This document shows, piece by piece, positions 43,209 through 44,807 of a stretch of DNA of 64,000 bases (the stretch's first letter is position 1; each line of letters starts with the position of its first letter). The position numbers and the translations under genes were made by a program. The notes under the pieces are model-generated. The model saw only the letters and a program-made list of their open reading frames with translations, was not told the origin of the DNA and did no database searches. The stretch is taken from the NCBI RefSeq assembly GCF_057098645.1, contig NZ_CM169472.1; one strand, written 5' to 3'.

Positions 43209-44807
43209 ATGCGTAAAACAGTGGCTTTTGGCTTTGTCGGAACGGTGCTGGATTATGCCGGGCGCGGCAGTCAGCGCTGGTCGAAATGGCGTCCGACGCT
43301 TTGTTTATGCCAGCAAGAATCGTTGGTCATCGATCGACTGGAATTGTTGCATGACGCCCGCTCGCGCTCGCTGTTTGAAACGCTTAAACGCGATATCGCC
43401 AGCGTTTCTCCAGAAACAGAAGTGGTGAGCGTTGAGATTGAACTGCATAACCCGTGGGATTTCGAAGAGGTTTACGCCTGCCTGCATGATTTCGCCCGTG
43501 GTTACGAGTTTCAGCCAGAAAAAGAAGACTATTTAATTCACATCACCACCGGCACCCACGTCGCGCAGATTTGCTGGTTTCTGCTGGCGGAAGCGCGTTA
43601 CCTGCCCGCCCGGTTGATACAATCTTCACCTCCGCGCAAAAAAGAACAGCCGCGCGGCGCAGGTGAAGTGACGATTATCGATCTCGATTTAAGCCGTTAT
43701 AACGCCATCGCCAGCCGCTTTGCCGAGGAACGCCAGCAAACGCTTGATTTTCTTAAATCCGGCATTGCCACGCGTAACCCGCACTTCAACCGCATGATTG
43801 AACAGATCGAAAAAGTGGCGATTAAATCCCGCGCACCGATCCTGCTAAACGGCCCAACCGGTGCGGGCAAGTCATTTCTGGCGCGACGTATATTTGAATT
43901 AAAACAGGCGCGGCATCAGTTTGGCGGCGCGTTTGTGGAAGTGAACTGCGCAACCCTGCGCGGCGATACCGCCATGTCGACGCTGTTTGGTCATGTGAAA
44001 GGCGCGTTTACCGGAGCGCGGGAATCTCGTGAAGGATTATTACGCAGCGCCAACGGCGGAATGTTGTTTCTTGATGAGATTGGCGAACTGGGCGCAGACG
44101 AACAGGCAATGCTGCTTAAAGCCATTGAAGAAAAAACCTTTTATCCGTTTGGCTGCGATCGCCAGGTGAGCAGTGATTTTCAGCTTATCGCCGGAACGGT
44201 GCGTGATTTGCGCCAGCTGGTTGCCGAAGGAAAATTTCGCGAAGACCTGTACGCGCGGATCAATCTCTGGACCTTCACCCTGCCGGGGCTACGCCAGCGC
44301 TAGGAAGATATTGAACCTAACCTGGATTATGAAGTGGAGCGTCACGCCGCGCTTACCGGCGACAGCGTGCGTTTTAACACCGAAGCGCGGCGCGCCTGGC
44401 TGGCCTTTGCGACATCTCCCCAGGCAACATGGCGCGGTAACTTTCGCGAACTTTCTGCCAGCGTCACGCGGATGGCGACGTTTGCCACGAGCGGACGCAT
44501 TACTCTGGAAGTGGTTGAAGATGAGATAAACCGTCTGCGCTATAACTGGCAGGAGAGCCGCCCCTCCGCGCTTACGCAGCTACTGGGCGCAGAGGCAGAA
44601 AACATCGATCTCTTCGACCGTATGCAACTGGAACACGTTATCGCAATCTGCCGCCAGGCAAAGTCGCTTTCCGCAGCCGGACGCCAGCTTTTTGACGTTT
44701 CGCGCCAGGGCAAAGCCAGCGTCAATGACGCGGATCGGCTACGCAAATACCTGGCGCGTTTTGGTCTGACGTGGGAAGCCGTGCAGGATCAGCACAGCTC
44801 CAGTTGA
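43209..44807 (+). pseudogene. rtcR: Sigma54-dependent activator RtcR interrupted by an in-frame amber codon (TAG at 44301-44303)
   Basis: ORF 43209..44303 (364 aa, N-terminal domain plus AAA+ with GPTGAGKS and GAFTGA) and ORF 44334..44807 are in the same frame (offset 1125 = 375 codons); sequence reads ...LPGLRQR-TAG-EDIEPNLDYEVERH..., the conserved activator junction; the C-terminal DNA-binding domain lies after the stop. Confidence 0.8.

Follow-up and report, generated by a model that had tools for sequence, protein, structure and literature searches.

An inherited amber allele of rtcR in a sub-lineage of Escherichia coli O145:H28

In the E. coli sequence analysed here (64,000 nucleotides in total, hereafter the window), the reading frame of rtcR is interrupted by an amber codon at residue 365. 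We consider, with a probability of about 0.85, that this allele (Q365*) is vertically inherited, that it had a single origin within a sub-lineage of O145:H28, and that its effect is null or near-null.

The amber codon and the strains that carry it

The rtcR frame starts with the ATG at 43209 and encodes a peptide ending in ...TLPGLRQR, followed by TAG as codon 365 and then by EDIEPNLDYEVERH. On the 3' side of the TAG, 167 sense codons are open until the TGA at 44805-44807. This 3' part is identical, base for base, to the intact rtcR of the closest genomes, indicating a point-mutated rtcR and not a pair of ORFs arisen by chance; the gene should be annotated here as one pseudogene, not as two ORFs. 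Translation of the window frame reproduced the coordinates, flanking peptide, 364-aa product and downstream length given in the initial annotation. Among the annotated genes of the 64 kb window, rtcR is the only one with an internal stop. The features of the gene are as follows.

43209..44807, plus strand: rtcR, whole ancestral frame (532 codons), now a pseudogene; 2 mismatches (99.9% identity) against the intact O145:H28 rtcR
43209..44303, plus strand: truncated rtcR ORF, 364 aa and TAG, containing the CARF domain and the sigma-54 interaction alpha/beta subdomain
44154..44154, plus strand: S316C in rtcR (Ser316Cys, A>T), second derived change, later than the stop
44301..44303, plus strand: amber codon, Gln365 to stop (CAG>TAG); same codon in retrieved loci L005-L009 and L011-L013
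44304..44807, plus strand: remainder of rtcR 3' of the stop, untranslated; AAA+ lid and C-terminal region 443-532 (presumed DNA-binding)

When rtcR and a 24-kb stretch were compared by megablast with 5,426 complete E. coli genomes, the window fell in the O145:H28 lineage: 26 genomes reach an identity of at least 99%, and the best of the others about 97-98%. Two same-lineage complete genomes, RM9872 and RM12761, were read base by base over rtcR, and both differ from the window at two positions, 44301 (T in the window, C in the genomes) and 44154 (T in the window, A in the genomes), codon 365 being CAG (Gln) in both. The other 24 genomes of the lineage gave the same two-mismatch score over the gene, so that all 26 agree in score. 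C at 44301 and A at 44154 are found in the more distant strain PE164 too, and therefore both states of the window, TAG and Cys316, are derived. Comparison with the rtcR of related strains had been suggested in the initial annotation; with CAG for Gln365 in RM9872, RM12761 and PE164, it identifies TAG as the derived codon. A 71-nt query centred on the TAG had an exact match in 0 of 1,056 comparable (seeded) complete genomes, the best match having one mismatch. Over its full 64 kb, the window has 15 differences from RM12761.

The amber codon was found again outside the complete genomes. The exact 364-aa product (with Cys316, ending at the stop) is present on 14 contigs, comprising the NCBI draft GCA_029357705.1 and several Logan read-set assemblies, and a sister allele having the TAG together with the ancestral Ser316 is present on 18 further contigs (GCA_015676305.1, ERR8531222, DRR634178 and others). 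Five loci with the exact 364-aa product were retrieved, and the TAG context was seen in all of them. The TAG loci differ mutually at 46922, 46900, 43614, 44154 and 49853 and by an indel in L007; with these private differences they represent distinct isolates.

These occurrences also decide on the sequencing error that the initial annotation had left as an option. In case of such an error, or of an assembly error, the true codon would be CAG and rtcR would be intact, and it is true that the TAG stands a single base away from the same-lineage complete genomes. However, the 14 and 18 contigs with the TAG come from different NCBI assemblies and from public read sets that were each assembled independently, the TAG loci carry private SNPs, and the clade has an internal structure. 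This option is effectively refuted, and we leave it hardly any probability. The genuine loss-of-function allele, offered beside it in the same annotation, is supported by the independent assemblies and also by the domains lost (see below).

Full-length RtcR with both Cys316 and Gln365 was absent among about 15 billion proteins. Accordingly, Q365* came first and S316C followed later, within a gene already truncated, as would be expected if the constraint on it had by then been lifted. Every TAG locus covering position 41845 shares Glu392 in rtcB; this E392 allele was found on 38 contigs, D392 on at least 1000, and the intact O145-type RtcR likewise on at least 1000. Judged from these counts, the TAG clade is a small minority of the sampled strains, yet a real one with an internal structure (TAG, then TAG with S316C). 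Literature searches on the allele returned nothing for rtcR with O145, and nothing pertinent for rtcR with Shiga toxin or nonsense.

Domains lost with the stop and the predicted effect on rtcBA

The domain map was made on an intact RtcR relative by the use of Pfam, NtrC1-type structures and the NCBIfam model NF038308. The RtcR/CARF domain (PF06956 in Pfam) occupies residues 2-185 of the intact relative with E = 9e-86 and is retained in the 364-aa product. The Sigma54_activat domain (PF00158), which is the alpha/beta subdomain, lies at 187-354, upstream of the stop, and the motifs kept are Walker A (GPTGAGKS, 215-222), GAFTGA (265-270) and Walker B (LFLDE, 286-290). The Pfam domain AAA_lid_14 lies at 362-442, so that the stop falls on position 4 of the lid, and sensor II (GNFREL, 410-415) is downstream of the stop and is lost with the lid. 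The complete AAA+ module, including lid and sensor II, is thus not in the translated product.

The AAA+ domains of the solved structures NtrC1, FleQ, ZraR and PspF align without break from about residue 185 to residues 427-437 of RtcR. In the structure-sequence alignment RtcR LPGLRQRQEDIEP pairs with NtrC1 IPPLRERKEDIIP, and this alignment puts the stop at the hinge that joins the alpha/beta core to the helical lid. The conserved junction of sigma-54 activators, at which the initial annotation had put the stop, is recognised in the same alignment as LPxLRxR-x-EDI. That annotation had also held that the product keeps the N-terminal and AAA+ domains and lacks the C-terminal domain. The retention of the N-terminal CARF domain and the loss of the C-terminal region stand, but the AAA+ domain is not intact, lid and sensor II being gone too. 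The statement that it is retained fits the three-domain scheme of RtcR constructs (1-186, 187-353 and 354-532; PMC9650030) and is structurally not correct.

Against NF038308, the RtcR equivalog model with a cutoff of 650 bits, the truncated product scored 620.7 and the intact O145 relative 851.4; the product spans profile positions 1-360 of 530 and is below the cutoff. For the C-terminal region of RtcR, no HTH family was matched in Pfam, residues 443-532 had only a chance match among PDB sequences, and an AlphaFold single-sequence model of residues 365-532 was all-helical with a poor pLDDT of 58. A DNA-binding role of this region is presumed from family architecture and from the literature, according to which RtcR binds the UAS of rtcBA and additional copies of the promoter can titrate it (PMC9650030).

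The rtc locus has the usual E. coli context, in the order malT, a TacA-like/GNAT pair, rtcA and rtcB (minus strand), rtcR (plus strand), glpR, glpG, glpE and glpD. The rtcR gene is divergent from, and adjoins, the sigma-54-dependent rtcBA operon, whose parts are the following.

43059..43074, minus strand: sigma-54 promoter of rtcBA, TGGCAC-N5-TTGCA, perfect match, intact; no SNPs against RM12761 between 41845 and 44154
41794..43020, minus strand: rtcB, 408 aa, intact, with D392E (41845), a change found in the whole TAG clade
40762..41790, minus strand: rtcA, 342 aa, intact

Except for the conservative D392E, rtcA, rtcB and the rtcBA promoter are identical to their counterparts in strains with intact rtcR. 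Expression of rtcBA needs the sigma-54 promoter and RtcR at the UAS (PMC9650030). With translation stopping after residue 364, the CARF sensor and the alpha/beta core of the ATPase would remain. An RtcR of this kind, having no lid, sensor II or enhancer-binding region, is expected neither to hydrolyse ATP properly nor to be recruited to the rtcBA UAS, and the intact rtcBA operon would become non-inducible, the allele being a regulatory null. From the domain architecture, we infer that RtcR activity and the induction of rtcBA would both be lost. The next gene, glpR, is convergent, and so no polar effect of the rtcR stop is expected. No decay is seen in rtcA, in rtcB or in rtcR downstream of the stop, so the event is recent and allows no judgement on selection.

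The effect of the stop would be weaker if it were read through. UAG may be decoded by supE-type suppressors or by near-cognate tRNAs, and low-level read-through usually inserts Gln; natural isolates seldom carry a suppressor tRNA, and the basal level at which UAG is read through is typically about 1% or less. Gln inserted by a supE-type suppressor or by near-cognate tRNA-Gln would recreate wild-type residue 365, and the 167 downstream codons are undamaged, so that full-length RtcR might be made in an amount sufficient to work. Yet no tRNA gene was found in the 64-kb window, and hence no positive evidence for a suppressor tRNA. A recent mutation accounts just as well for the undamaged 3' part, considering the 15 SNPs in 64 kb against RM12761; nor is the stop a conserved recoding site, since close relatives lack it. 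Enough read-through for a working RtcR is, in our judgement, quite unlikely, though low-level read-through of UAG could make rtcR Q365* a severe hypomorph instead of a strict null. Programmed recoding was considered separately and rejected, the stop being confined to one sub-lineage and the checked genomes of the same lineage having CAG.

We also considered that the truncated CARF-AAA fragment may itself be functional, alone or with a separate 157-aa C-terminal piece, for instance by working as a split activator or by sequestering RtcA, RtcB or the RNA signal. The CARF domain, which binds RtcA and RtcB (PMC9650030), is retained, and gene callers predict a 157-aa ORF from the GTG at 44334. However, the break separates the alpha/beta core from the lid within the AAA+ module, and the GTG at 44334 has no recognisable ribosome-binding site. 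It and the GTG at 44367 are the only in-frame restart candidates 3' of the stop, and no obvious Shine-Dalgarno sequence precedes either. Other lineages break rtcR elsewhere, or delete rtcR and rtcB, which fits plain loss. A functional fragment is therefore very improbable, less probable than effective read-through.

Under the preferred reading, a null or near-null Q365*, this Shiga-toxin-producing O145:H28 sub-lineage is predicted to be unable to induce RNA repair by RtcB and RtcA. The TAG isolates would be natural rtcR knock-outs with intact rtcBA, useful for comparative phenotyping.

Several other features were seen in the window. An AbrB/MazE-type antitoxin and PemK/MazF-family toxin pair is located at 27594-28225 (plus strand, per the RM12761 annotation), the antitoxin having M13I in the window relative to RM12761. 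MazF-type RNases make RNA ends of the kind that RtcB repairs (PMC5416887); the window strain has a MazF-type toxin, yet its Rtc regulator is disabled. Between malT and rtcA, at 39952-40712 (plus strand) and immediately adjacent to the RNA-repair operon, a DUF1778 (TacA-like antitoxin) gene and a GNAT acetyltransferase gene form a putative TacAT-type module; this pair gave no NCBIfam matches, and it appears to be present at the rtc locus L024 and absent at L022. A four-gene block at 48674-52280 (minus strand), between glpD and glgP, encodes three hypothetical proteins and a 501-aa PstS-family phosphate-binding protein. NCBIfam gave no match for two of the hypotheticals and a weak, short one for the third, and the PstS-like protein scored 124 bits, below its cutoff of 206.6; one hypothetical of the block has G64E relative to RM12761. 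GlpG was called as 257 aa, not 276 aa, at L007, L015 and L020, with the indel of L007 near window position 46368, a separate polymorphism of this rhomboid protease.

Origin of the mutation and recurrent loss of rtcR

The amber codon overlaps a former Dcm site.

44300..44304, plus strand: former Dcm site, CCAGG (ancestral) to CTAGG, window against RM12761

Position 44301 is the inner cytosine of the ancestral CCAGG, the base methylated by Dcm, and the change is AGCGC-C-AGGAA to AGCGC-T-AGGAA. The dcm gene is located outside the 64 kb, and Dcm is reportedly near-universal in non-B E. coli. Deamination of 5-methylcytosine at this site would give C>T and so CAG>TAG at codon 365, and considering the sequence context, such a deamination is the probable origin of Q365*. 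In E. coli, CCWGG is a G:C>A:T hotspot at the methylated base (PMC13250602; see also PMC10710837). Forty-seven G:C>A:T nonsense sites are possible in rtcR, six of which are Dcm cytosines (codons 319, 365, 397, 405, 483 and 500), so that a single hit on a Dcm site would occur by chance, with no hotspot effect, in 13% of cases.

A second amber allele, Q319* (CAG>TAG), was found in L014 and L016, at the other CAG-on-CCAGG site upstream (equivalent to 44162-44166, with codon 319 corresponding to 44163; context GATCGC-TAG-GTG). The rtcR of these two loci differs at 73 positions; the lineage is unrelated and the amber is independent. A 213-aa RtcR C-terminal fragment starting at residue 320 in L014 and L016 is the product of the Q319* split. 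Both amber alleles would fall on Dcm cytosines by chance with P of about 0.016. A general Dcm signature among the SNPs of the window was also considered and rejected: a methylated C was hit only at 44301, and 49853 is the outer, unmethylated C of CCTGG.

Other lesions of rtcR were found in E. coli. L017 has Y312* (TAA), L015 has a 1-nt deletion at gene position 931, and L018-L021 have a 1-nt deletion at gene position 923. In the deletion-923 group, L020 and L021 carry further rtcR lesions and rtcB is split in L019 and L020, which suggests a progressive decay of the rtc operon in this lineage. An internal rtcR deletion of 960 bp, leaving a 214-aa product, was present in 148 collection blocks (L022-L024), and L010 has a large rtcA'-rtcB-rtcR' deletion with rtcA' fused to rtcR'. 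Among the complete genomes, 586 of 5,424 (about 11%) had rtcR coverage below 80%. In the weakest matches that were sampled, only the last 24% of rtcR is kept, and the one weak match inspected contained an rtcR remnant fused to an rtcA remnant, annotated as pseudogenes. In a pan-genome study, rtcR and rtcB are among the variably recovered 'extended-core' loci (PMC12595684), and a K-12 rtcR mutant has been recovered as antidepressant-resistant with raised efflux (PMC9765716). Loss of rtcR is common and tolerated, E. coli having lost this regulator repeatedly, and Q365* is a real, ordinary pseudogene allele of a gene whose presence is known to vary.

We might speculate further that rtcR loss, instead of being neutral, has been repeatedly selected, uninduced or absent RNA repair being advantageous in some niches, and that Dcm-methylated CAG codons act as high-rate mutational switches from which the knock-outs come. 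If so, the independent lesions, at least seven in number and including two ambers at CCAGG, would be the footprint of selection for rtcR loss; we regard this as unlikely. Clustering of SNPs was considered as a sign of relaxed or positive selection at the rtc locus. Four of the 15 SNPs against RM12761 (rtcA A10 synonymous, rtcB D392E, rtcR S316C and rtcR Q365*) fall within 40762-44807, which is 6% of the window; a rough Poisson estimate gives P of about 0.016. One of the four, at 41761, seems to belong to RM12761 alone, and the clustering was rejected as too weak.

Comparison with known systems

Like the other lesions of rtcR and of the rtc operon, Q365* removes the activator of rtcBA. Unlike them, it is an independent event confined to an O145:H28 sub-lineage with rtcBA intact, whereas some members of the deletion-923 group have a split rtcB.

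A natural amber polymorphism is known at codon 33 of rpoS (CAG/TAG) in E. coli K-12 stocks. In both genes CAG>TAG segregates in a stress-response regulator, by which a dispensable regulon is, or in rtcR would be, switched off with its target genes intact. For the rpoS allele, in contrast to rtcR Q365*, a product restarted further downstream is documented, supE suppresses the amber in laboratory strains, and selective trade-offs have been demonstrated.

Sigma-54 activators truncated at the C-terminus, such as PspF 1-275 and NtrC without its HTH, activate from solution at high concentration. The DNA-binding domain of a sigma-54 activator is removed in these constructs, as it presumably is in the rtcR product. 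However, they keep the whole AAA+ domain including the lid, whereas translation of rtcR stops short of the lid and sensor II; residual activity is therefore much less likely here than in the PspF and NtrC constructs.

In the mutation itself there is a likeness with lacI, in which Coulondre, Miller, Farabaugh and Gilbert reportedly found in 1978 that amber hotspots are at CCAGG Dcm sites. As in lacI, CAG in rtcR lies over CCAGG with the methylated inner C as the first codon base, at which C>T gives TAG, and the same applies to codon 319. The mutation frequencies of lacI were measured in Dcm-positive laboratory K-12, whereas the mechanism in rtcR is deduced from two natural alleles. With such an origin, rtcR Q365* would illustrate cleanly, in a natural population, the textbook mutation of CAG to TAG at a Dcm site.
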